Shown here piece by piece: positions 2,885 through 19,398 of a stretch of 19,398 nt of DNA (the stretch's first letter is position 1; the number at the start of each line of letters is the position of its first letter). Origin of the DNA: an uncultured delta proteobacterium (lineage in GTDB: Bacteria > Desulfobacterota > Zymogenia > Zymogenales > Zymogenaceae); contig CAWBYW010000002.1 of assembly GCA_963792965.1 (NCBI GenBank), positions 1 through 19,398 of the forward strand, written 5' to 3'. A model generated the notes under the pieces. That model was not told the origin of the DNA. It made no database searches and saw nothing but the letters and a program-made list of their open reading frames with translations. The position numbers and the translations under genes were made by a program.

Positions 2885-3923
2885 TCAAAGTATCAACATG
2901 GCGTCGCCATAGCTGTAGAACCGATAGCGTTCTATAACGGCTTGCCGGTATGCCGAGAGGATGAAGTCGCGTCCCGCAAAGGCCGAGACAAGGAGCAACA
3001 ACGTCGATCTCGGCAGGTGAAAATTCGTGATGAGACCATCCACCACGCGAAACGTAAAACCCGGCACGATGAAAAGCGACGTTGTCCCTGTCCCCGGCGT
3101 CACGCGGCCGGTATCGTCGGCCGCGCTCTCGAGGGCTCTCGTCGTGGTCGTCCCCACGGCAATGACCCGGTCTCCCTTCGCGCGTGCCCCGTTGACTGCC
3201 GCGGCCGCCTGTTTGCCGATGCGGTAGCGCTCGCCATGCATAACGTGCCCCGCGATATTCTCACTCTTTATCGGCAGAAACGTCCCCGGGCCCACGTGGA
3301 GGGTGAATCTTCACGAAACGCCCCCCCCGGCCCTCAACGGTCCGGATCATCTCGTCGGTGAAATGGAGGCCCGCCGTCGGCGCGGCGACCGACCCGGGGG
3401 GATCGGCATAGACCGTCTGATACCGGAGCCGGTCCTCCCGAGGATCCGTGTCCGCCTTCCGCTTGATATAAGGCGGGAGCGGGGGCTTTCCCCATTTCTC
3501 CAGATAGTCAAAGAGCCCTTCCGGGAAGCTGGCCTCAAGGGACCAGGTCTTTTTCCGGCGTCCCGTCAGCTCGGCCAGAACGCCCCCCGGGAGGATGAGC
3601 CGGGTGCCGGGTGCGATCCGCCGCCCCGGGAGGAGGCACGTGCCCCCGTTTTCGGTTTCCTCAAGGAAGAGGATCGAGATCCTCCCTCCCGTCTCTTTCT
3701 GCGCGTCAACGCGGGCCGGGATTACCCGGCTGTCGTTGACGATCATGGCATCTCCCGGACGAATGAACCGACCGAGGTCGGCAAACCGGGAGTGCTCGAT
3801 CGTTCGGCCCGTCCTTGAGAGGACCATTAGACGGCTGTCCTCGCGTCGGGTGGGCGGGTGCTGAGCGATCAGTCCCTCGGGGAGGTCATAGTCGAAGTCG
3901 GAGAGGTTCACGGCATAAGGCAT
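2885..3923 (-). CDS. queA: S-adenosylmethionine:tRNA ribosyltransferase-isomerase QueA (indel near 3305; start may be GTG at 3911)
   Basis: [44 protein letters not shown], then after the shift [22 protein letters not shown] and [10 protein letters not shown]. Confidence 0.96.
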
Positions 3924-4565: not shown

Positions 4566-6285
4566 TTACTTCATCTTAGAGGTCTTTCCTTTCTTCAGCA
4601 TGGCCATCGCGAGAGACGCGGGTCCCACAATCTGGGGATCTGTCAGGACGTTGATACAGGTGGTCTTCTCTGAGCTGAACGCTTCTACCAGGGCGGGCCT
4701 GATTTCGTCCAATTTAGTGACCAGGATCCCCTTCCCCCCGAGGGCCTGTACCGCCTCATGATACGGAACGTACCCTATCTCAACCGTTCCGCGTACAAGC
4801 TTCTTGAAATCCATCTTCATGGCGTTGGACGTCATGCCCCAATTCGCGTTATTGTCGATCACCACGACGATAGGAAGTCCTCTCCTGATCGATGTCTCAA
4901 TCTCCATGAAATTAAAGCCGACCGACCCATCCCCCGTATAGACGAGCACCCGCCGGGCGGGGTTAACGAGCTTGGCCGCGTTTCCGTAGGGGAATCCCAC
5001 CCCGAGACACCCGAAGAGTCCCGCATCCATCATATTCAGCTCGGCCCGGCATGTCCTGGTCGTTAACATCCAGGACACCGTGTCGCCGCCGTCCAAGACG
5101 ATGATGTCATTTATCCTGTCCATGAACTCGTTGACCTCTCGCGCGAGCCTGCCGGGATGAATCGTCGCCGACTCCTTATCTATTTGCTGTCGCGACGATA
5201 GTTTTGCCGCTTTCTCATTTTCTCTCAGGGCGTCCACCCAACCCGTAAACTGCGAGCCGGGGCTTGGTGCCCGGGCCTCTTTCTCGATGATCCGGTTGCA
5301 CTGCTTGCAGAAGGGCTTTGACGTCGGCAAAGACCGCATGATCGATGGCCCGGTTGCGGCCCATTTCTTCAGGCTCAATGTCTACCTGTATCAGCTTCGC
5401 GTCTGTGCGGAAATAATCGCCAAAGACGGAATAGAGGCCGATACGAGTTCCCAAAAGAATCACGAGGTCGGCGCAGTTATCGCCATGCCCGCGCACCCCG
5501 GGGTGACGATGAGAGACGATCCGAAACAGAGGGGGTGGGTATCGGGGATTATCCCCCTGGCCATGTTCCCGGTGAAGACCGGGATCCCGGTCTTTACGAC
5601 GAACTCCGCCAGATCTGTTCCAGCGTCCGAGTAGTAGGCCCCGCTGCCCGCCATGATAATGGGTTTTTCGGAGGCCTTGATCATCTCGATCATTTTTCGT
5701 GCGTCGTCCGGATCAACGGGTCTGGACACGGCGCGCGTGCTGATCTTCTTTACCTTGCTCAGGTCTACGTCTGCCTCGAGGACGTCGAGCGGAAGCTCGA
5801 GGAACACCGGGACCGGATCGACCCTCGATTGCATATCGAAACGCCATGTCGATATACTCGGGGATCCTTTCCGCCTTACGACATACGAGGCTCTTTTTAA
5901 CGATGGACTCGATAATGGGCTCCTGCTTCATATCCTGAAGGCCCAGCTTCTCCGCGGCCCCGGCCTCATGGCCCCCCGCGATCAGGACGAGGGGAGTGTT
6001 TGACAGCCGCGCATTGACGATGGCCGAGATCGTGTTGGTGAATCCGGGGCCGACCGTGACCAGAACCACGCCCGGCTTTCGCGTCATCCTGCCGTAGGCC
6101 TCGGCCATGAAGGCCGCCGCCTGCTCGTGTCGTGTCGAGATGATCTCGATCGGCCCGCCTTCCACCGCGAACTGTATCGGTATGATGCTCTCGCCGGGGA
6201 GCGAAAAGATATACTCAACCCCGGCATCCAGCAGTGCCTCGCCGATGAGCCTCCACCCTTCCTGTACGTCAGCCTGTTTATTCAT
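4566..6285 (-). CDS. Thiamine-diphosphate-dependent enzyme (acetolactate synthase-like / 2-hydroxyacyl-CoA lyase-like); about 3 apparent indels
   Basis: Pieces 5713-6285, 5460-5834, 5215-5496 and 4566-5378 join into one protein. Motifs: TRHEQAAAFMAEAYGR, GPGFTN, GPVFLELPLD, DGGD, FGCLGVG and the ThDP motif GDGSVGF-x-NNANWG. Confidence 0.9.
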
Positions 6286-9917: not shown

Positions 9918-10889
9918 TTATGAGCCGTGCGGCTTTTTGAAGACCTCGGACATGATCCGGTTGACCTCCGTGTAGGGGTCCGTCTTGCGCCCGGCCATCG
10001 CCTCGTAGAGCTGTGCCAGCCCCTCGTCACCCCCCCGTTCGTCCAGTACCCTTGAGAGGAGGCGGTCTTGCAGCAGCTCGAGGAACTCGTAGCGCGCCCG
10101 CTCGACCCGCTTTCGCGCGAGCCCCTTCCCACCCTCGGTGTATGCCCGGTGCGCGACGACGGCCGCCATCAGCTCTTCGATCCCTTCTCCGTAGAGGGCT
10201 TCCGTCTTGACGACCGGCGGCCGGAGCTCGCCCTCGGCGTAGCGCTTCATGTCGAGCATGGCCGCTATATCATGCACGGCGCGGTCTGCCCCTTCCCGGT
10301 TGGCCTTATTGACGACGAAGACGTCCCCAACCTCCAGCACCCCCGCCTTGATGGCCTGGATCTCGTCGCCCAGCCCGGGCGTGAGGACAACCACCGTCGT
10401 GTGCGCCGTGGAGACGATCTCCGTCTCGTCCTGTCCCACGCCCACCGTCTCTATGATGATGATGTCCTTTCCCATCGCGTCCATGACGTTGATGACGTCG
10501 TTGGTGCTGGCGGAGATGCCGCCCAGATGTCCGCGCGTGGCCATGGAGCGGATGAAGACGCCCCGGTCGGTGAAGTGACGAGACATGCGGATCCGGTCGC
10601 CGAGGATGGCGCCGCCCGAAAAGGGACTGGTGGGGTCAACCAAGATAAGGCCGACGGTGAGATCCCGCTTTCGGTACCACTCCACGATCCGGTCGACGAG
10701 CGTGGATTTGCCCGCACCGGGAAGGCCGGTGATTCCTAAGAGATAGGCCTTCCCGGTGCAGGGGTAGAGTTTTTTGAGCTGTTCTGCCGCGCCGGGCATC
10801 TCGTCGTCGATGTCGCGCATCAGCCGCGCTGCGGCCCGCACATCGCCCGCAAGCACCCGCTCGGCAAGTGACGTCGTGTTATAAACCAA
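9918..10889 (-). CDS. meaB: Acyl-CoA mutase-associated G3E GTPase chaperone MeaB (start uncertain, probably TTG at 10889)
   Basis: GITGLPGAGKST, VDPTSPFSGGAILGDRIRM, ETVGVGQ, GDEIQAIKAG and VVNKA. Confidence 0.94.
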   Translation of the reverse strand: MVYNTTSLAERVLAGDVRAAARLMRDIDDEMPGAAEQLKKLYPCTGKAYLLGITGLPGAGKSTLVDRIVEWYRKRDLTVGLILVDPTSPFSGGAILGDRIRMSRHFTDRGVFIRSMATRGHLGGISASTNDVINVMDAMGKDIIIIETVGVGQDETEIVSTAHTTVVVLTPGLGDEIQAIKAGVLEVGDVFVVNKANREGADRAVHDIAAMLDMKRYAEGELRPPVVKTEALYGEGIEELMAAVVAHRAYTEGGKGLARKRVERARYEFLELLQDRLLSRVLDERGGDEGLAQLYEAMAGRKTDPYTEVNRIMSEVFKKPHGS

Positions 10890-12030
10890 GGTACCTCGAA
10901 ATAACGATGCGCTGCACTTCGCTGGTTCCTTCGCCGATCTCAAGGAGCTTCTGATCGCGGTAGAACCGCTCCACCGGATACTCCTTCATGAGCCCGTATC
11001 CGCCGTGAAGCTGTACCGCCTGATTGACAACCCGGCTCATCACCTCGCTGCAATAGAGCTTGGCCATCGCCGCCACTTCCCCGAAGGGCCGCTTGTTTTC
11101 TCTCAGCCAGCAGGCTTTGTAGAGCATGTTCCGGGCGGCCTCGATCTCCATGGCCATGTCGGCCAGCTTGAAGGCGTTGACCTGGAACTTCCCGATGGGC
11201 TTGCCGAACTGCTCACGCTCTTTTGCGTACTTGAGCGCCTCCTCGAAGGCGCCCTGTGCGCCTCCCAGGCCCATCGCCGCGATGGAGAGCCTGCCGCCAT
11301 CAAGCGTCTGGAGCATCTGGTGGAATCCTTCGCCCCGCTTGCCCAACAGGTTCTCCTCGGGAACCTTTACGTCGTCGAAATAGAGCTCGCCGGTGTCTGA
11401 GGCCCGCCACATCATCTTCTTCTTCATCGCCACCTTTTTGAACCCGGGGGTATCCGAAGGTACGAGGATGCAGGAAATCTCCTTCCTCCCATCGGGACGC
11501 GTCCCCGTCGCCGACTGGACGACGCAGATGCCCGCCATTTCGGACGTGGAGTTGGTGATGAAGATCTTCGAACCGTTGATGACCCAGTGGCCGTCCTTGA
11601 GGACGGCCGCTGTTTTGCTTGAGCCGGCGTCCGACCCCGCGTTGGGCTCGGTCAGGCCGAAGGAGGCAAGGATCTCGCCGGAGCAGAGCCTCGGAAGCCA
11701 GATTTCCTTCTGTTTCTTGCTGCCGAAGTAGTTGATGGGCCCGATGCCCAGCGAATTTGCCGCCGCCACCGTTGCCGCCTGTGAGCCGTCCACCCGGGCG
11801 ATCTCTTCCACCGCGATGATGTAGGAGATGTAGCCGACATTGGAGCCGCCGTACTCTTCGGACACGAACATGCCGAAGAGCCCCAGCTCGCCCATCTGTT
11901 TGGTGATGTCCGTGGAGAAGACGGCCTTTTCGTCCAGCTCCTCGGCCTTGGGTTTGATGACCTTTTCGGCGAAGTCACGGACGGTCTTTCGGAGTATATT
12001 CTGTTCTTCGGTAAGGTCGTAGTTCAACAT
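10879..12030 (-). CDS. Acyl-CoA dehydrogenase (short/branched-chain type)
   Basis: FGLTEPNAGSD, INGSKIFITN, QLHGGYG and EIGEGTSE (catalytic Glu position). ATG at 12030 follows a GAGGT RBS. Confidence 0.95.
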   Translation of the reverse strand: MLNYDLTEEQNILRKTVRDFAEKVIKPKAEELDEKAVFSTDITKQMGELGLFGMFVSEEYGGSNVGYISYIIAVEEIARVDGSQAATVAAANSLGIGPINYFGSKKQKEIWLPRLCSGEILASFGLTEPNAGSDAGSSKTAAVLKDGHWVINGSKIFITNSTSEMAGICVVQSATGTRPDGRKEISCILVPSDTPGFKKVAMKKKMMWRASDTGELYFDDVKVPEENLLGKRGEGFHQMLQTLDGGRLSIAAMGLGGAQGAFEEALKYAKEREQFGKPIGKFQVNAFKLADMAMEIEAARNMLYKACWLRENKRPFGEVAAMAKLYCSEVMSRVVNQAVQLHGGYGLMKEYPVERFYRDQKLLEIGEGTSEVQRIVISRYLGL

Positions 12031-12058: not shown

Positions 12059-12690
12059 TTAGGCCGGCTCAAACCACATGAGAAGCATCGGGTGCCCCAC
12101 CGGCTCCTTGGTGTAGGCAACCTTGACCGGCATCCCTGATCTTGATCTTCGTCCGGTCGGTTCCCCAGTTCCTCAGCTGATGGGTGAACAGAGAGTCGGC
12201 CCCGTCAAGCTTGACCATCGCCAGCACGTAGGGCATCTCCACCTTCATGAAGGCCGGGACGAACTCGCGAGATCGAAAAGCTCATCAAGCGTCCCGTGCC
12301 GGGCAGCTCCTTCCACTTAGTGATGGCCAGGCAATCGGGGCAGACCGGCCGCGGGATCGCCCAGACGTAGCCGCACTTGGGGCATTCGGTGGCGAAGAAC
12401 TTCTTGTTCTCCAGCTCGATGAAGAACTTGGAGTATTTGCCAAGCGAGTGGCGGTAGGTGAGTTCCATCTTCCACTCGATGCGCATGATCTCGCGGAAAT
12501 CCTTCCACGGGTCCTGGTCCGCCCGATGGATGGGGTCAAAGGCGAGCTTCGGTCCGATGGGATCGTCGGCCTTGAATACCTGTAGTTTCGTAGAGACGAG
12601 GCCCCGGGCTTTCCCCGGCGCCAGATCGGCTATCTTCGGGAGCTTGGGGTATAACGTCTTCTGGGGATCGTCGAAAACACTTTTAGCCAT
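12059..12690 (-). CDS. DUF35-type Zn-ribbon/OB-fold protein; 2 apparent indels (near 12267 and 12138)
   Basis: CPKCG..PRPVCPDC, LPGTGRLMSFS, then PYVLAMVKLDGAD and IGMPVKVAY..MWFEPA* in shifted frames. Preceded by an AAAGGAG RBS. Confidence 0.9.
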
Positions 12691-12708
12691 GGTCGTTTCT
12701 CCTTTCTG

Positions 12709-13921
12709 TTAGTCGACACGCCGGAAGATGTTGATGGCCACAAAGGTCCCGGTTCCGCCGTGGGAGTCCATGCCGCCCTGCCCGTTGATGATCTTGGCCT
12801 GGCGCTGGGGATGTGACCTCCTCGCGCAACTGCTTCATGACCTCGATGCCCTGGTTGACGCCGGTGGCGCCGACTGGGTGGCCCATGCCGATGAGGCCGC
12901 CGGAGGTGTTGATGGGGAGCTCGCCGCCGAGGTCGAAGTAGCCCTCCTCGTAGAGCTTGCCGCTGCGCCCCAGCCCGCAGAGGCCGAGGTCCTCGCAGCT
13001 GACCATCTCCACGCCGGAGTAGGCGTCGTGCACCTCGAAGCAGTCGAGCTCCTTGGCGGGGTTCTTGATGCCGGCCATCTTATAGGCCTGCTCGGAGGCG
13101 ACGCGTTTCGACCGGAAATGGGCGATGCCGGGATAGGGGTAGGGCCGATCGGCGATACGCATATAGTCGGTCCCGCATCCGGTTCCCACCACCTCGATGC
13201 GCGGCTTGCGGTACCACGAGGTCGAGTGGGCCTTTGCCCACTCTTCGGTGGCGAAGACCAGGCACGACGCACCGTCGGAAAGGAGGCAGTTATCCAACAC
13301 CTTATAGGGCGAGGTGATCAGCGGGGAGTTCATGACGTCCTCCACCGTGATCCTCATGGGGCTCTGGGCGTACTCATTGTAGATGGCGTTGCGGTGGTTC
13401 TTGACGGAGACCAGCGCGAACTGCTCTTCCTTGGTCCCGTACATGTCCATATGTGCCCGCATCATCATGGCGTAGTAGGCGATATAGAAGCCCGCCACCT
13501 GCACCTCCCAGTCCGTGTCGGAGGCCAGCGCGATGAACTGCTGGGCCACGTCGGACGGCACGTGCCGGCCCATGTTCTCGGTGCCGTACACGATCATGGA
13601 ATCGCAGAGGCCCGACTTGATGTAGGCATAGGCGTTCCTGATGGCCAGGCCGCCGGTGCCGCCGCCGCCCTCGACGCGAACGTTGGGCTTGGGGCACATG
13701 CCGACGCAGTCGTGGAAGATGGCGCCCTGCTTCAACTGCTTGTCGAAGTGGTCGGAGAAATACGAGGTCGTGGCATGCTCGATATCGGCGATCTCGACGC
13801 CGGCGTCACAGACCGCTTCCATTACCGCTTCTACGACCCAGTCGCGAATGTTGCCGTCCGGGCGCTCGGAGGCCATCTTGGAGATGCCGCCACCCAGGAC
13901 GAAGACCCTTCTGTCGCTCAT
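12709..13921 (-). CDS. Thiolase-fold (SCP-x-like) protein lacking the nucleophilic Cys; indel near 12810
   Basis: RVEGGGGTGG at the Cys loop, KNHRNA..N.YAQ, SDGA, EVHDAY and SGGLIGMGHPVGATG. The true C-terminus SHGGTGTFVAINIFRRVD* is in another frame. Confidence 0.9.
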
Positions 13922-14126
13922 AGAAATCCTCCTTATCTGTTTCCTGTCACAGTAACATTGCGCATCATAATAAATCCCGGCGCCTCTCGCCGAGCCGGAG
14001 CTCTACCGAAGGCGCCAGCCTGAAGACTTGTCATATCGCTTTCTGAAAGCCATACCACCCGAGCCGCCCGTGCGGGTCTTCTCGCTCGTGTCGAGACCAC
14101 CCACGAACGCCGCGTGCGCGGGGTGG

Positions 14127-14531
14127 CTACTTCGGCTTGATGTTGCCGTTGATCCAATTTACGATCCGCTCGGTGCTGTCCCCGGGCAGGAAGATCTCTC
14201 CCACCCCGGCCTCCTTGAGCTTCACGATGTCCTCCTCGGGGATGATACCGCCGCCGAAGACCGCGATGTCGCTTGCACCCTCCTCTTTGAGAAGATGAAT
14301 GATCTGCTTGAAGAGGTGGTTGTGCGCCCCGGAGAGAATGGAAAGCCCGATGCCGTCCACGTCCTCCTGGACGGCCGCCGCGACGATCATTTCGGGCGTT
14401 TGATGGAGCCCCGTGTATATCACCTCGATCCCCGCGTCGCGCAGGGCGCGAGCGACGACCTTGATGCCCCGGTCGTGGCCGTCGAGCCCCGGCTTTCCGA
14501 GAAGTATCCTGATTTTTCGTCCTTTGGTCAT
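14127..14531 (-). CDS. Cobalamin-binding small subunit of an acyl-CoA mutase (IcmB-like)
   Basis: [10 protein letters not shown] (DxHxxG), GLSILSGAH and GGGIIP; 134 aa. Confidence 0.95.
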
Positions 14532-14639
14532 GATATGGATCTCAATAGTTCGTGTTGGTTATAGGTCTTCGCGGCCCGCTAAAAGAGACCGTGCCGACGG
14601 GCCGAGCATACCTCACGTGACGCGCGACGCACGGGCGGC

Positions 14640-16315
<1,676 letters not shown>

Positions 16316-16398
16316 ATACCCCCCGTATATCTTTCAGGTTCTTATTAACTTTTCCAAACGCTCCCGGTGGTGAGACGAAAGAAGACATCTCCCCTCGT

Positions 16399-16944
16399 TT
16401 AGCGCTCAATTCCGAGCCGTGCTTGTGTACCGTTTGCATAAGGATGTTTTATTTCCACCATCTCGGTGACGAGGTCGGCGCGCTCAATGACCTCGGGCCT
16501 CGCGTACCTGCCGGTGAGTATGAGCTCGGTCTCGGAAGGCTTCGTATCGATCAGGGCAAGGACGTCGGCAAGCTTGATGAGCCTGAAATCCAGCGCCACG
16601 TTGATTTCGTCAAGTACGACGATGTCGTATTCCTTACCGGAGATGATCTTTTTGGCCAGCGCCAGCGCATCCTTGGCGAGCTTCACATCGATCGACTCGG
16701 GATTGTTCTTGTCCACGAAGTCGGGCCGCCCCATCTGGATGATCGTGAGGTAGGGGGCAAGGTACTTTGCCGCGCCGAGCTCGCCGTAGTAGATCTCGCC
16801 CTTCATGAACTGAATGACGCAGGTCTTCAGGCCGTGGCCCGCGGCTCTGAGCGCGAGCCCGAGGGCGGCCGTGGTCTTGCCCTTACCGTTTCCGGTGTAG
16901 ACCTGTACGAGGCCCTTTCGATCTTTTTTCGCGTCGTCTCCCAC
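16399..16944 (-). CDS. cobO: Cob(I)yrinic acid a,c-diamide adenosyltransferase (CobO/BtuR type)
   Basis: VYTGNGKGKTTAALG, QFMKG, VVLDEIN, LILTGR and ADLVTEM..IKHPY. Confidence 0.94.
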   Translation of the reverse strand: MGDDAKKDRKGLVQVYTGNGKGKTTAALGLALRAAGHGLKTCVIQFMKGEIYYGELGAAKYLAPYLTIIQMGRPDFVDKNNPESIDVKLAKDALALAKKIISGKEYDIVVLDEINVALDFRLIKLADVLALIDTKPSETELILTGRYARPEVIERADLVTEMVEIKHPYANGTQARLGIER

Positions 16945-16969: not shown

Positions 16970-17026
16970 CCTGCAGGGGGCGCGTTATGTCGCGCCCGCG
17001 AGTGGTATACATGCCGCCCCTACAGG
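16970..17026. repeat. Degenerate GTAG-family REP doublet (REPIN-like)
   Basis: Outer arms CCTGCAGGGGGCG and CGCCCCTACAGG. Left unit has the hairpin GGGCGCG-TTATGT-CGCGCCC. Right unit reads GTAGGGGCGGCATGTATACCACTC on the minus strand. Confidence 0.55.
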
Positions 17027-17041
17027 TTTAACCCCGTGGAC

Positions 17042-17051
17042 ATTACGTAAT
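17042..17051. promoter_or_regulatory. Palindrome ATTACGTAAT, candidate operator upstream of cobO
   Basis: Shares the TTACGTAA core with the site upstream of the MerR gene. Confidence 0.45.
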
Positions 17052-17065
17052 ACGATGAGCTTATC

Positions 17066-17528
17066 TCACTCCCGCTCCTTTTTGAGCTTATCGCGCATCC
17101 GTTTCTGGAACTCCTCGATCTCGACCCTGAGGAGCCTGAGCTCGTCTATACGGTGGTCTATCTGGCGCCGGTGATTGTCGAAAAGTTCGATGATCCGTGG
17201 GAAGACTTTGGAGTTCTTGCGGTGCGTCTCGTAGATGGCGTTGAGCTCCTGCATCTCGGCAAGGGTCAGGCCGAGGATCTTGAGCTTCTGGATGAACCGG
17301 ATGCGCCTTAGATCGTTTTCGGTGAAGACGCGCTTGCCTCCCTCCGTCCTCCTGATCGAGTCAAGCAGGCCGATCTCCTCGTAGTAGCGGATGGTGCGCG
17401 GCGAGACGTCGAGCTTCTTCCGAGAGCTCGCTGATGTTCATGTGGAGCAGCGTCGCCGGGGAAGCCGGCCGCGTCAGATTCTTGCCGCCGTTTCCGAGGG
17501 AATTTGCATTGTTCTTCTTGACGGCCAT
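17066..17528 (-). CDS. MerR-family transcriptional regulator (LiuR-like); indel near 17421
   Basis: Manual translation gives MNISELS-KKLDVSPRTIRYYEEIGLL..RTEGGKRVFTENDLRRIRFIQKLKILGLTLAEMQEL followed by a coiled coil. The ORF track shows only the C-terminal 62 aa. Confidence 0.9.
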
Positions 17529-17561
17529 GTCTCTCGTCTCACCCGTTATCTGGCGGTCTTG

Positions 17562-17626
17562 TCTGCCATGTTACGTAAACTGGCAGATCATGTCCCGTTT
17601 CTATCAAAGGCGGGGCGGCTTGTCAA
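17562..17626 (-). promoter_or_regulatory. Promoter plus palindromic operator of the regulator/mutase cluster
   Basis: TTGACA (17626-17621), 17-bp spacer, TG-n-TAGAAA, followed by the near-perfect palindrome TCTGCCA-TG-TTACGTAA-AC-TGGCAGA (17562-17587). Confidence 0.65.
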
Positions 17627-17755
17627 GAAAAATGTGAATGATTTGTCAGTCAATCATTGTTCTCGGTCATGTCCCTATTGCTGACGTGGTGGGGTCCAAT
17701 GCCTGAGATGCGGTGATCGAGGAGGAAGGCTCGCCGACGGGGATGCTCTGTTATG

Positions 17756-17784
17756 GCCCCGCGAGATCTAAGATCTCGCGGGGC
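17756..17784. repeat. Perfect 14-bp inverted repeat with a 1-nt spacer
   Basis: GCCCCGCGAGATCT-A-AGATCTCGCGGGGC, 4 bp after the stop of the 17789-18490 gene. No U-tract. Confidence 0.8.
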
Positions 17785-17788
17785 GCTG

Positions 17789-18490
17789 TTACGCCCATCC
17801 CTCCCGGGCGAGGGCGTCGTGGAGCTCGTCGGGGTGATGGCGGCAGCGATATTCGAGCTTGCTTGAATCGACATGGGCCCTCGAATAGGGCCACCCTTTG
17901 GCCATCTTGTTTCGCTCGTGCAGCTCGTGCAGGAGGACGAAGGGGCGCTCGGCCTCAACGAGGTCGTCGTCGATCCAGACCTCCCCCTTGGGGACGAACT
18001 CGTAGACGTGGTCGTGCCCCCCCTCGGTGTAGTCGATGTCAAAGACGCTGCGGACGAGCCTCCCGTTCACGATCCAGACCTCGACGCCGCTCTCCAGCCG
18101 CTTCCAGAGCCGCACGTGCACCTGTCGCGGGTCGGGGAGGTCGTCGCCGGTCAGGACGCGCTTCGCGTCGCTGGATTTGCGGCGCTCGGCCCGCTCGGCG
18201 AGGTCGGCGGCGTCGATCGCCTTGTCGTATGGGGTCCCGGCCGCCATGAGCCGGTGCTCTACGAGGAGGTGGTCGATGAAGAACCTGATCTCGCCCTGAT
18301 CGGCGTCCGGGGGGATTTGGTCGATCCAGAACTCATTTTGCGGGATGAAGGGGAAGCGGTAGTGCTGGCCGTAGTTGGTGAACTCCTCGTCGATGCGGCT
18401 GCGCACATATGCGCCATCGACCATAAAGATGCCGATATCGCCCCGCTCCTCGACCTTCTTCAGATATGGTGGCTTTAATTGCTCATCCAT
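17789..18490 (-). CDS. Hypothetical protein with a two-fold internal repeat and an HExxE...H putative metal site
   Basis: Intact ORF; likely ATG at 18490 (MDEQLKPPY) after a G-rich RBS. The two halves align by eye. Confidence 0.85.
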   Translation of the reverse strand: MDEQLKPPYLKKVEERGDIGIFMVDGAYVRSRIDEEFTNYGQHYRFPFIPQNEFWIDQIPPDADQGEIRFFIDHLLVEHRLMAAGTPYDKAIDAADLAERAERRKSSDAKRVLTGDDLPDPRQVHVRLWKRLESGVEVWIVNGRLVRSVFDIDYTEGGHDHVYEFVPKGEVWIDDDLVEAERPFVLLHELHERNKMAKGWPYSRAHVDSSKLEYRCRHHPDELHDALAREGWA

Positions 18491-18580
18491 AGGCTGCCCC
18501 CCACGATATGGGTTGGAGTCACTTACAGATTCGTGCGGATTTCCTCTCTCCTGAAGCAATCGACGATATGATCATTGACG

Positions 18581-18630
18581 AAGCCCGTCGCAAAGCAGTA
18601 TGTTCCCGGACTGAATACTGGAACGGGCTT
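18581..18630. other. Bulged hairpin (50 nt)
   Basis: AAGCCCGT/ACGGGCTT outer stem and CAGTAT/ATACTG inner stem, followed by TT on the plus strand. Confidence 0.45.
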
Positions 18631-19398
18631 TTGCACTTGAGGGGACACGTCCTTGTAACCGTTAGGAGCCGGGCAATTAGGAGTTGGCCATCAAGGGACT
18701 GCCGGACTCATGCCTCGCTCCTCAATCCTTTTTCTTCAAGGTTGAGCACTCTCCAGCATGGCAACGCCTTCTTAATTTCTTTTTATGAAGGCTCCAAGGC
18801 AGTTGATAACTTTTCGTAAAGATCATAGGTCAAACCCGGAAAGATGTCAATGCCGAAGGTGCCCGGAAACCTTGCACTATATAGAGCGGCTAAGCCAGAA
18901 GAAGTCATGGCCATTTTGACCAAATACCCGCATGACGCAGGACATCGCTGCGGACGACTTCCATTTCTTTCGATGAGCAGATTCAAAATTGGACATTTGA
19001 GTCACCGCTGCATCAACAAAGGCAAGACACTGTAATTACGACTGAGTTTGTGAAGATTGCTAACACTTATAGCTTGTGGTGAGTCAGCATTGCATCAGCA
19101 GGGTAATTTCGAGTAATGGCCGTTTAGGTCAATGAGTTTCAAGAATGACATAATCTTCCCATAAGATCAGCCTGTTATTAATGTCCAGCCATGTATAGGC
19201 TAGTCTGGCACATTTGGTGCATCTCCTTTGACGCAGAAGGGCTGGCCCGCTGAAGCAATAGAATTTGCTGTTCTTGTCGCAGTGGTTGCAGATCGGGTGG
19301 ACCGCCGACACAAGCCTTGCCCCTTCCTCCGATCTGGACCGCTCACAAAAGTCAACTAACAAAATAAGCTCGGTGCTGGCGTCGATAGCCAACGATAA

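Follow-up and report, generated by a model that had tools for sequence, protein, structure and literature searches.

A cysteine-less thiolase-fold protein and its DUF35 partner in a short-chain acyl-CoA operon: a candidate aldol-type acyl-CoA lyase

The window, by which we mean the whole 19,398-nucleotide stretch of DNA analysed here, encodes a Cys-less thiolase-fold protein (TLP). It belongs to a family in which all of the thiolase cysteines have been lost and whose gene is obligately paired with a gene for a DUF35 protein. Judged by its sequence, TLP cannot be a thiolase, as it has neither the nucleophilic Cys nor the HDCF Cys nor the CxG Cys; with no Cys at the nucleophile position there can be no acyl-enzyme, which is needed for thiolysis. 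By analogy with the steroid side-chain aldolases we infer an aldolase function for the pair, and consider the chances evenly balanced that TLP and DUF35 act as an acyl-CoA lyase of the aldol type, non-thiolytic and equipped with a new catalytic set. A literature search, with most subscription journals outside its coverage, found no paper on this TLP family. The features of the window are listed in Table 1.

Table 1. Features of the operon and its neighbours in the window
Feature	Coordinates	Strand	Evidence or remark
Classical Cys-bearing biosynthetic-type thiolase (PhaA-like), 396 aa	8507..9697	minus	TIGR01930 508 bits, cut-off 240.55
MeaB-type G-protein chaperone of B12 mutases	9918..10943	minus	TIGR00750 313.7 bits, cut-off 240.75
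Short-chain (Bcd/SCAD-like) acyl-CoA dehydrogenase (ACAD), 383 aa	10879..12030	minus	structure-sequence matches
DUF35 partner, about 209 aa intact	12059..12690	minus	translation, Pfam on orthologue
Cys-less thiolase-fold protein (TLP), about 403 aa	12709..13921	minus	Pfam, NCBIfam, homologue alignment
Acyl-CoA mutase B12-binding small subunit	14127..14531	minus	PF02310 88.2 bits; TIGR00640 153.9 bits, cut-off 57.45
Acyl-CoA mutase large subunit	14640..16315	minus	split by indel frameshift ~15323-15434
CobA/BtuR-type ATP:cob(I)alamin adenosyltransferase	16399..16944	minus	TIGR00708 176.7 bits, cut-off 167.75

The thiolase-fold protein and its DUF35 partner

Translation of the minus strand yields NVRVEGGGGTGGLAIRN, in which the nucleophile loop reads VEGGGGTGG, just as the initial annotation had it. 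The third Gly codon of this loop (GGC, 13663..13661) encodes Gly87, which aligns with the nucleophilic Cys of the solved archaeal thiolases 6esq and 7yvy (RVEAACASG); the VExxCxSG Cys of the Nβ3-Nα3 loop is thus missing from TLP. The HDAY and GHP histidines are present in the window protein (EVHDAYS, MGHPVG), as are the other motifs that had been pointed out (TSYFSDHF, QQFIALASD and AYYAMMM). The absence of a C-terminal catalytic Cys also holds, with SHGGTG readable only in the frame that is entered past a one-base indel in a CCCC run (~12813-12818). The intact C-terminus is QAKIINGQGGMDSHGGTGTFVAINIFRRVD, followed by a TAA stop at 12711..12709. An acid/base Cys is found neither in the HDCF position, where TLP has HDAY, nor in the CxG loop, where it has SHGGTG.

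The fold itself is that of a thiolase, and the GHP histidine goes with it. Thiolase_C_1 (98.6 bits), Thiolase_C and Thiolase_N (35.3 bits) all exceed their Pfam cut-offs, and an AF2 model (pTM 0.85) shows the thiolase fold. The best NCBIfam match is NF004982 (PRK06365) with 380.1 bits (376.3 bits on the genome), below the curated cut-off of 695, so that TLP is not assigned to that family; the Ltp2-related lipid-transfer model NF005924 gives 41 bits. The archaeal proteins of this uncharacterised NF004982 group, named 'thiolase domain-containing protein', are 420-490 aa long and match TLP in two stretches, indicating an insertion past about residue 262. Public records label the proteins of the TLP family acetyl-CoA C-acetyltransferase or thiolase, the mis-annotation that had been predicted, and an ESM Atlas look-up returned generic thiolase names only.

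A DUF35 gene follows with its own ribosome-binding site, its ATG at 12690 lying 8 nt past a GGAG. In the encoded protein an N-terminal part of 95 residues precedes a C4 zinc ribbon (CPKCGYVWAIPRPVCPDC) and an OB fold. Two indel frameshifts (~12250-12266 and ~12141-12148) keep the window copy below the Pfam cut-offs (zf-ChsH2 21.2/23.2, OB_ChsH2_C 16.4/27.1). Both domains pass in an intact orthologue, P0124, of 86-93% identity (zf-ChsH2 23.4/23.2, OB 40.8/27.1), which places the partner among the DUF35 proteins. Cys103, Cys106 and Cys117 are invariant in 30/30 aligned partners. The DUF35 gene comes directly after the TLP gene in 73/80 related genome loci, and in the remaining seven the contig breaks off no more than 72 nt from the TLP gene.

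Conservation of the old active site and placement of the family

An alignment of homologues, which had been proposed as a check on the missing Cys, was made with 117 full-length sequences of 50-90% identity. Gly occupies the nucleophile position in every one of them, and in 119/119 when all homologues covering the loop are counted. As these sequences come from independent assemblies, Gly87 is not a read error, which refutes the concern that GGC stands for a misread TGC. The window operon does hold at least four indel frameshifts. Contigs of relatives from other sequencing runs have, among the differences listed, one base fewer at 12813 and further indel differences at 12268, 12286 and 12292, suggesting that the errors in the window are indels and not substitutions. 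Comparison of the sequences thus confirms that the Gly is genuine, neither chance nor misread. A single homologue, P0045, has a Cys one position before the Gly87 site.

The initial annotation had proposed a His-based, non-thiolytic enzyme. Its premise that no thiolase Cys is left stands, but the histidines it named are poorly kept across the family. His298 of HDAY is found in just 20/117 homologues (Ala 54, Tyr 40, His 20, Met 3) and His348 of GHP likewise in 20/117, position 348 being Ala in 91. A third histidine, His387 of the SHGGTG loop, is invariant instead (117/117), as are Asn338 and Asp299, and Tyr301 is kept in 109. At position 300, the site of the HDCF Cys, we find Ser (43), Thr (30), Ala (21), Pro (20), Asn (2) and Val (1), and the CxG Cys is absent throughout the 117. 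The xDxY loop of other clades reads YDSY (Chloroflexota clade) or ADTY, again with no Cys. Two other cysteines of TLP, Cys106 and Cys249, are nearly invariant (115/117 each). The mean frequency of the top residue is 0.87 in the Cys loop, 0.87 in the GHP loop and 0.80 in the CxG loop, compared with 0.73 for the whole protein. Such conservation of the former active-site loops above the protein average is a pattern that would not be expected of a dead enzyme.

The window TLP lies in a tight bacterial family that forms one cluster at 50% identity. Its sister clade is PRK06365-like and archaeal (Asgard, Bathyarchaeia, Syntrophoarchaeum and Methanolliviera), which agrees with the largely archaeal resemblance suggested earlier from the motifs; organism names, given in 6/10 looked-up clusters, are all archaeal. 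Gly at the nucleophile position, SYFSDHF, HDAY/F, GHP and SH[GA]GTG recur in this sister clade. In a set of 141 representatives drawn from the nearest 50%-identity clusters (63 non-Cys, 78 Cys-bearing), His at the 387 position is found in 17 of the 63 non-Cys proteins, all 17 with Gly, versus 2 of the 78 Cys-bearing ones (Fisher 2.5e-5, taken without phylogenetic correction). HDCF is present in 54/78 Cys-bearing representatives. The tree unites the Gly+His proteins in a single clade, of whose 22 tips they make up 19, and its two subclades have supports of 1.0 and 0.975.

Gene context in the window and in other clades

The TLP-DUF35 pair lies in a tight unit with the Bcd-like ACAD and MeaB, while the mutase and the true thiolase adjoin it. 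The ACAD gene starts 28 nt beyond the DUF35 stop, and the listed MeaB ORF overlaps the end of the ACAD gene. The TLP gene and the mutase small subunit are separated by 205 nt, within which a hairpin with a T-rich tail (13994..13976) was noted that is not significant. Scans of the window gave no Rfam family reaching its gathering score, 3 promoter-like sites (2.2 expected) and 6 terminator-like sites (7.5 expected), neither above chance. A V4R/XylR_N protein is encoded upstream of the operon in three related loci (L002, L003 and L019), with no match in the window.

The mutase large subunit has Phe at the Tyr89 site and Gln at the Arg207 site of methylmalonyl-CoA mutase (MCM), and Ala at the Asp site of HcmA. 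The corresponding motifs are RQFAGF and EYIAQKSW, as against RQYAGF and EFMVRNTY in MCM, and RQIAGF and ISTDFDMPT in HcmA. With the Phe and Gln residues, separate large and small subunits and a MeaB-type chaperone, the enzyme is isobutyryl-CoA-mutase-like. An acetone/2-hydroxyisobutyryl-CoA pathway (TPP lyase plus mutase) was considered and rejected, since the mutase, although nearest to HcmA overall, differs from it in carrying Phe and Ala in place of Ile and Asp, and since the TPP enzyme (4566-6285) accompanies the operon in only 2/7 instances (the window and L002). A pivalyl/isovaleryl-CoA route is also not favoured, as the ACAD matches butyryl-CoA and short-chain dehydrogenases (2.5e-106 to 8e-89; 5ol2 2.5e-106, 1buc 8e-92) better than isovaleryl-CoA dehydrogenases (about 1e-69 to 6e-72). 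For the pivalyl-CoA mutase signature, PMC2847961 gives no residue data. The window has no HMG-CoA synthase gene and no MaoC or steroid genes, and the operon has no hydratase.

Gene context was surveyed by tblastn on the 80 related genome loci. In the clade of the window an ACAD is found near the pair in 21/80 loci and a classical thiolase in 16/80. The mutase is linked in only 6/80 loci plus the window. The Proteobacteria/Gemmatimonadota clade has CoA ligases and enoyl-CoA hydratase, and one of its loci an ACAD as well; tblastn found no thiolase or further ACAD there, and no dehydrogenase is present among the annotated ORFs of three of its loci (L059, L062 and L071). In the Chloroflexota clade the context consists of a CaiB-type CoA-transferase, aldehyde dehydrogenase and DhaK/DhaL (dihydroxyacetone kinase), with Dak1 in 22 loci. 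These contexts supply enzymes that would make a 3-hydroxyacyl-CoA or take up an aldehyde or ketone product, which supports an aldol reading. As the context differs among clades, one substrate common to the whole family is unlikely.

Relation to known enzymes, proposed chemistry and its alternatives

The nearest solved relatives of TLP are DUF35-binding archaeal thiolases, the acetoacetyl-CoA thiolase from the thiolase/HMG-CoA synthase complex of M. thermolithotrophicus (6esq/6et9) and PFC_04095 of P. furiosus (7yvy), at 2.5e-65 and 8.3e-53 and with TM 0.82-0.85; Foldseek places 6et9 at 4e-35, TM 0.85. They have in common with TLP the length class, the SD.EWE and NxSGGL motifs and the DUF35 partner. 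However, their nucleophilic Cys is still in place (EAACASG), in 6esq along with HDCF, whereas TLP has neither.

More distant are two steroid side-chain aldolases. CtSal-Shy(DUF35), the bile-acid C5 side-chain retro-aldolase of Comamonas testosteroni (PDB 9myr), has a thiolase fold; in PMC12329534 it is described as DUF35-bound, with Gly at the thiolase nucleophile position and retro-aldol cleavage via its xDxY loop. This loop (YDCY) sits at the place of HDAY in the window and of YDSY in the Chloroflexota clade. The TLP family likewise has the nucleophile Gly, and a DUF35 gene adjoins that of TLP, its product presumably binding TLP; a CoA-ester substrate handled with no acyl-enzyme would be a further common trait. 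The catalytic residues proven for Sal, Tyr302 and Cys304, are His and Ala in the window; those proven for Ltp2 are Tyr294 and Tyr344 (PMC12329534). Sal has its DUF35 fused to a MaoC hydratase and a steroid context, in contrast to the separate DUF35 protein and the short-chain acyl-CoA/B12-mutase context of the window, and it is distant from TLP (Foldseek rank 26, phmmer 2.7e-18). TcLtp2-ChsH2(DUF35), the steroid C3 side-chain aldolase (PDB 6ok1), is likewise a Cys-less thiolase fold with a DUF35 partner. As stated in the initial annotation, its catalytic residues are different: YDHF stands where TLP has HDAY, with His298 and, by the +50 spacing that matches Tyr344, His348 in the window. Its DUF35 is carried on the MaoC hydratase subunit in a steroid cluster, unlike the stand-alone DUF35 here, and the match to TLP is only 1.7e-21 (Foldseek rank 31). 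A third Cys-less relative, TbSLP of Trypanosoma brucei (5ab4-5ab7), differs in having a YDCF with Cys, no DUF35 partner and a eukaryotic origin, and is more remote still (3.8e-11). Its physiological function is given as unknown, with an aldolase role proposed, in PMC12329534.

On these analogies, TLP and its zinc-ribbon/OB DUF35 subunit may form a heteromeric, catalytically active, non-thiolytic thiolase-fold enzyme, probably as a TLP dimer with a DUF35 subunit on either side. In the most likely chemistry a short 3-hydroxyacyl-CoA would undergo a reversible aldol/retro-aldol reaction that yields acetyl-CoA (or propionyl-CoA) and an aldehyde or ketone, as in Sal and Ltp2. Backbone amides of the glycine-rich loop (VE-G/A-G-G87-G/A-T/S-G) could interact with the hydroxyl or carbonyl of the substrate. 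His387, located in the Cβ4-Cβ5 loop where classical thiolases have CxG, might polarise the thioester and stabilise the enolate, or act as a base, while Asp299 and Tyr301 of the xDxY loop might shuttle the proton. In this organism the pair is presumably co-transcribed with the butyryl-CoA-dehydrogenase-like ACAD and MeaB. The substrate is probably a C4/C5 (branched) acyl-CoA intermediate of the operon's pathway, given these two genes in the unit and the isobutyryl-CoA-mutase-like mutase and true thiolase beside it.

Several observations speak against the aldol reading. The proven catalytic residues of Sal and Ltp2 are not conserved. Both classical histidines are gone in 97/117 homologues, which could equally mean catalytic decay. 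The operon has no hydratase for making a 3-hydroxyacyl-CoA and already possesses a real thiolase. Cys106 and Cys249 are nearly invariant, the gene context varies with clade, and the mutase is linked in only a few loci.

An improbable alternative is that TLP-DUF35 is a non-catalytic pseudo-thiolase, only a scaffold or adaptor that assembles the ACAD, the true thiolase and perhaps the mutase into a channelling complex. KT/DUF35 pairs are known to nucleate multi-enzyme assemblies in two archaeal cases, the thiolase/HMG-CoA synthase complex and the S. acidocaldarius fatty-acid synthase complex with its reductase and dehydratase (PMC12329534 and bioRxiv 10.1101/2024.07.05.601840), and the thiolase and ACAD genes near the pair in the window's clade, like the scarcity of the HDxY and GHP histidines, would suit such a role. 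However, the scaffolding complexes known so far contain a thiolase that is itself active, no thiolase is there to be scaffolded in the Chloroflexota and proteobacterial contexts, and the old active-site loops, with the invariant His387 and the glycine-rich loop, are conserved above the rest of the protein.

It is equally doubtful that the pair performs other enolate chemistry on an acyl-CoA, be it cleavage of a 3-ketoacyl-CoA by water, loss of CO2 from a malonyl-type CoA ester, or epimerisation/isomerisation at C2. The oxyanion-hole elements and the invariant His would serve such reactions too, and the neighbouring mutase yields branched/linear isomers. Yet we know of no thiolase-fold hydrolase or epimerase paired with DUF35. 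In methylmalonyl-CoA mutase Arg207 binds the substrate carboxylate, and with Gln at this site of the window mutase, malonyl-type substrates are not expected in the operon. A decarboxylase precedent does exist in the Cys-less TbSLP, which acts on malonyl-CoA very slowly (kcat 0.005 per s), but CtSal is without malonyl-CoA decarboxylase activity (the former as cited, the latter as reported, in PMC12329534).

That TLP is still a thiolase, through a misread Cys codon in an error-rich window or through Cys106 or Cys249 (the latter perhaps near the active site, as its position is often His or Gln in Cys-bearing relatives) having taken over as nucleophile, is very improbable: the invariant Gly87 and the indel nature of the errors refute the first route, and against the second the HDCF acid/base Cys is gone too, Cys106 would by homology lie at the far end of the helix that the nucleophile starts, and Cys249 is missing in two members.

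An aldolase function of TLP-DUF35 with a Gly/His/Tyr site would add a third independent catalytic solution to those of Ltp2 (Tyr/Tyr) and Sal (Tyr/Cys) among the thiolase-fold/DUF35 aldolases. In that case the pair would be the first of these aldolases to be linked to short-chain, non-steroid acyl-CoA metabolism, and a potential biocatalyst for building C-C bonds from acetyl-CoA. A wider reading, which we regard as unlikely, is that the whole Gly87/His387 clade, comprising the bacterial family and its sister in Asgard, Bathyarchaeia and alkane-oxidising archaea, is a new class of CoA-ester aldolases that interconvert acetyl-CoA plus small aldehydes or ketones (acetaldehyde, acetone, glyceraldehyde or dihydroxyacetone) and 3-hydroxyacyl-CoA directly. 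Were it true, such enzymes would provide a C-C forming or cleaving entry to beta-oxidation-like pathways with neither thiolase nor NADH, and the operon's B12 isobutyryl-CoA-type mutase and butyryl-CoA dehydrogenase would be linked to a carbonyl compound, not to acetoacetyl-CoA. As the records name these proteins acetyl-CoA acetyltransferase or thiolase, a thiolase step of which they are incapable may be counted when the metabolism of anaerobic bacteria, Chloroflexota and Asgard or alkane-oxidising archaea is reconstructed.

The thiolase-fold gene and its nucleophile position

The nucleophile loop of the Cys-less thiolase-fold protein (TLP) reads NVRVEGGGGTGGLAIRN, and its third Gly (Gly87) aligns with the nucleophilic Cys of RVEAACASG in two solved archaeal thiolases, 6esq and 7yvy. 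The motifs EVHDAYS, MGHPVG, TSYFSDHF, QQFIALASD and AYYAMMM, listed in the initial annotation, could all be located in the TLP reading. The listed ORF is out of frame past about residue 369 because of an indel frameshift, and the true C-terminus, ...QAKIINGQGGMDSHGGTGTFVAINIFRRVD, lies in the neighbouring frame. A DUF35 gene follows with its own ribosome-binding site, as described before; its intact orthologue in locus L019 of a relative is 209 aa long and scores above the cut-off of both Pfam DUF35 models. Single-base indels split many genes of the window (TLP, DUF35, mutase large subunit, queA and TPP enzyme), a pattern which is that of an unpolished long-read assembly. The window is the entire contig C2 of a 42-contig genome.

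Locations of features in the window, in the same genome (C, contigs) and in loci of relatives (L)
Feature	Location	Strand	Details
TLP gene	13921..12709	minus	stop TAA 12711..12709
Codon of Gly87	13663..13661	minus	GGC
DUF35 gene	12690..12059	minus	GGAG 8 nt before ATG 12690; two further frameshifts
B12 acyl-CoA mutase (split) with own adenosyltransferase	14127-16944	minus	
G-protein chaperone MeaB	9918-10943	minus	
TPP enzyme	4566-6285	minus	several frameshifts
ORFs within 17000-19398, examples	17789-18559; 17873-18478	minus; plus	no Pfam or NCBIfam match to ORFs of this region
Indel sites, examples	near 12813, 12250-12266, 12141-12148, 15323-15434, 3261-3295, 5215-5834		whole window affected
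Indels against relatives' contigs	12813; 12268, 12286, 12292		one base fewer in relatives at 12813
V4R/XylR_N-type protein	L019:4313-4999; L003:5385-6071; L002:4993-5679		228 aa
Tandem Cys-less pairs	C7:616-618 kb; C13:195.6-198 kb; C16:281-283.3 kb		loops VTTGGTTG, ITTGGTTG, VLSGSYKN; C13 pair repeated on C14 and C15
Cys-bearing paralogue	C7:318.5-319.7 kb		loop YEGACASA
Chloroflexota operon	L039, L046, L051-L056, L058, L060-L069, L072-L074, L077-L079		about 4-17 kb

An earlier caveat, that GGC might be a misread TGC, is refuted by the homologue alignment. Among the best 120 homologues listed from 5.8 billion proteins searched (identity 52-90%), Gly occupies the nucleophile position in 119/119 that cover the loop, and in all 117 members left once the frameshifted translation from the window and three partial sequences (P0023, P0072, P0076) are excluded. 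The differences listed against contigs of relatives, which come from other sequencing runs and from organisms other than that of the window, include several indels and fit indel errors in the window rather than substitutions. The loop of P0045, one sequence from a 1.8-kb contig, is VEGCGSTGG, with a Cys one position ahead of the invariant Gly87; this Cys may be erroneous or result from local reversion.

Family placement and conserved residues

Pfam detects only thiolase domains in TLP. The best NCBIfam model is NF004982/PRK06365 (380 bits; cut-off 695), followed by PRK06064 (325 bits) and the M. thermolithotrophicus thiolase model (251 bits), while the lipid-transfer model NF005924 (PRK07937) reaches 41 bits. 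The closest solved sequences are the P. furiosus thiolase 7yvy (2.5e-65) and 6esq, the thiolase of the archaeal thiolase/HMG-CoA synthase/DUF35 complex (8.3e-53), whereas the steroid aldolases Ltp2 (6ok1; 1.7e-21) and Sal (9myr; 2.7e-18) are distant. Foldseek with the AF2 model (pLDDT 78, pTM 0.85) agrees in order, with 6et9, 7yvy and 6esq at the top and Sal and Ltp2 at ranks 26 and 31. TLP has therefore lost its Cys independently of the steroid aldolases.

When 1.84 billion cluster representatives were searched with a profile, a single 50% cluster (743 bits) took in the entire TLP family, and the next match scored 431 bits. In the 141 nearest representatives having residues in both columns compared, the nucleophile residue is Cys in 78, Gly in 33 and another residue in 30, and His at position 387 accompanies Cys loss (17/63 non-Cys vs 2/78 Cys-bearing; Fisher 2.5e-5, ignoring relatedness). 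Proteins with this Gly and the His of the SH[GA]G loop fall into a single 22-tip clade (19 tips being Gly+His) in a midpoint-rooted FastTree tree from which fragments outside 340-520 aa were dropped; support for the common node is weak (0.52) and that for its two halves is 1.0 and 0.975. One half consists of the TLP family plus a few unnamed relatives, and the other of 420-490-aa proteins sharing SYFSDHF, HDAY/F, GHP and HSH[GA]GTG. Ten clusters were looked up across the clade, seven in the archaeal-type half and three in the other; four have no organism names and the six named ones are all archaeal (Methanolliviera, Atabeyarchaeum/Njordarchaeum, Syntropharchaeales, two of Bathyarchaeia, and Thorarchaeota). 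Asgard proteins are thus among the members of the sister clade. Given these names and the shared motifs, the likeness to an archaeal PRK06365-like group noted initially holds.

Within the 117-member set, Gly87, Asp299, Asn338 and His387 are invariant, Tyr301 is found in 109, and Cys106 and Cys249 in 115 each. The HDAY and GHP histidines, on which the initial annotation had based a His-based aldolase, are indeed present in the window protein, but they are not the conserved ones: position 298 is His in 20 members, Ala in 54, Tyr in 40 and Met in 3, and position 348 is His in 20 and Ala in 91. The former catalytic loops remain above the average column in conservation (0.87, 0.74, 0.87 and 0.80 vs 0.73 overall). 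TLP residues 298, 348 and 387 are spaced as Tyr302, Gln352 and Gly391 of Sal (+0, +50, +89), whose oxyanion hole is built by the backbone of Gly391 (PMC12329534); this spacing, rather than an inspected alignment, would place His387 at the oxyanion-hole loop.

The DUF35 gene follows the TLP gene in 73/80 genome loci (tblastn), the other seven contigs breaking off no more than 72 nt from that gene; in L042 two genes separate TLP from DUF35. The partners are 169-209 aa long, with a longer N-terminus than minimal DUF35 proteins. All 30 aligned sequences share Cys103, Cys106, Cys117 and a C-terminal His-Pro, and the fourth zinc ligand is substituted in some members.

The same genome carries three more tandem pairs of SCP2-type thiolase-like paralogues without the nucleophile Cys, the loop of one member of the C7 pair not being covered, and one paralogue which keeps it. 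The pair repeated on C13, C14 and C15 is probably an assembly duplicate.

Operon settings

The window carries on its minus strand, in this order, cobA-type adenosyltransferase, mutase large subunit, B12-binding small subunit, 205-nt gap, TLP, 18 nt, DUF35, 28 nt, acyl-CoA dehydrogenase (ACAD), MeaB (overlapping), 220-nt gap and classical thiolase, flanked by housekeeping genes. Six relatives match this order (L001-L004, L019 and L038, labelled Thermodesulfobacteriota, delta proteobacterium or Ca. Zymogenaceae). Since MeaB, the chaperone of B12 mutases, lies inside the tight TLP-DUF35-ACAD unit, the pair is tied to the mutase pathway in this lineage. The mutase is closest overall to the 2-hydroxyisobutyryl-CoA mutase HcmA (4.3e-107) and departs at two sites from HcmA (RQIAGF, ISTDFDMPT) and methylmalonyl-CoA mutase (RQYAGF, EFMVRNTY); it has Phe and Gln at these specificity sites, the isobutyryl-CoA mutase signature. 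It also has an unusual His at the site of an Asp in relatives. The ACAD is closest to butyryl-CoA/short-chain dehydrogenases. The mutase pathway probably handles branched and linear C4/C5 acyl-CoAs. The operon contains neither a hydratase nor a 3-hydroxyacyl-CoA dehydrogenase.

The TPP enzyme, with PRK05858 and an actinobacterial 2-hydroxyacyl-CoA lyase model as best NCBIfam matches, is found again only in L002, downstream of the operon, and is thus probably not part of it. In three relatives, the region upstream of the mutase operon encodes a stand-alone V4R/XylR_N-type small-molecule-sensing protein, for which the window showed no counterpart.

Distinct neighbourhoods accompany the motif clades of TLP. 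The HDAY/GHP clade (Thermodesulfobacteriota, Actinomycetota and Bacillota including a Syntrophothermus MAG) has classical thiolases and Bcd-like ACADs in its vicinity, to which L032 adds ETF and an Fe-S oxidoreductase. In the YDSY/GAP clade of Chloroflexota, the pair lies within a conserved sugar or nucleoside-type operon of ABC transporter, ADP-ribosylglycohydrolase, nucleoside-hydrolase-like, PNP-like, aldehyde dehydrogenase, LacD-type aldolase, TLP, DUF35, DhaK, DhaL, a relative of the sulfoquinovose isomerase SftI (4e-40), MFS transporter and CaiB-type CoA-transferase genes; Dak1 and the SftI-like gene each occur in 22 loci. This operon appears to be a hitherto undescribed branch of sugar, deoxy-sugar or nucleoside catabolism that depends on CoA. 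The ADTY/GAP clade (Paracoccaceae, Anderseniella, Gemmatimonadales and Acidiferrobacteraceae) has two acyl-CoA ligases and a TRAP or ABC transporter nearby. Of its loci, L059, L062 and L071 have an enoyl-CoA hydratase near the pair and L062 an ACAD; tblastn found no thiolase and no further ACAD in the three, and no dehydrogenase is among their annotated ORFs.

Function of the pair

Every setting combines conversion of an acid to its CoA ester with 3-hydroxyacyl-CoA formation or aldehyde/ketose handling, and the gene settings therefore favour an aldol-type lyase over the alternatives, although this evidence is circumstantial. Both Sal and Ltp2 are aldolases that have a thiolase fold without the Cys and bind DUF35, and a Gly at the nucleophile site is common to Sal and TLP (PMC12329534). 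By this analogy TLP and DUF35 may well be a non-thiolytic aldol/retro-aldol lyase acting on short 3-hydroxyacyl-CoAs, a reading in which we place middling confidence; the Gly-rich loop, His387 and Asp299/Tyr301 would form its new catalytic set. That the pair is a scaffold or pseudo-enzyme seems unlikely, though two things speak for it: most members have lost both classical histidines, and DUF35-mediated complexes are described in bioRxiv 10.1101/2024.07.05.601840. Other enolate chemistry is similarly doubtful. A thiolase with a relocated Cys, or a read error, is highly improbable, the latter having fallen with the homologue counts.

Cys-less thiolase-fold/DUF35 enzymes are already known for steroids, and our literature search, whose coverage mostly excludes subscription journals, found no paper on the TLP family. 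New here are the delimitation of a bacterial family marked by Gly87/His387, the observation that its conserved histidines do not include those of HDAY and GHP, and the operon link of the TLP pair to an isobutyryl-CoA-mutase-like B12 enzyme.
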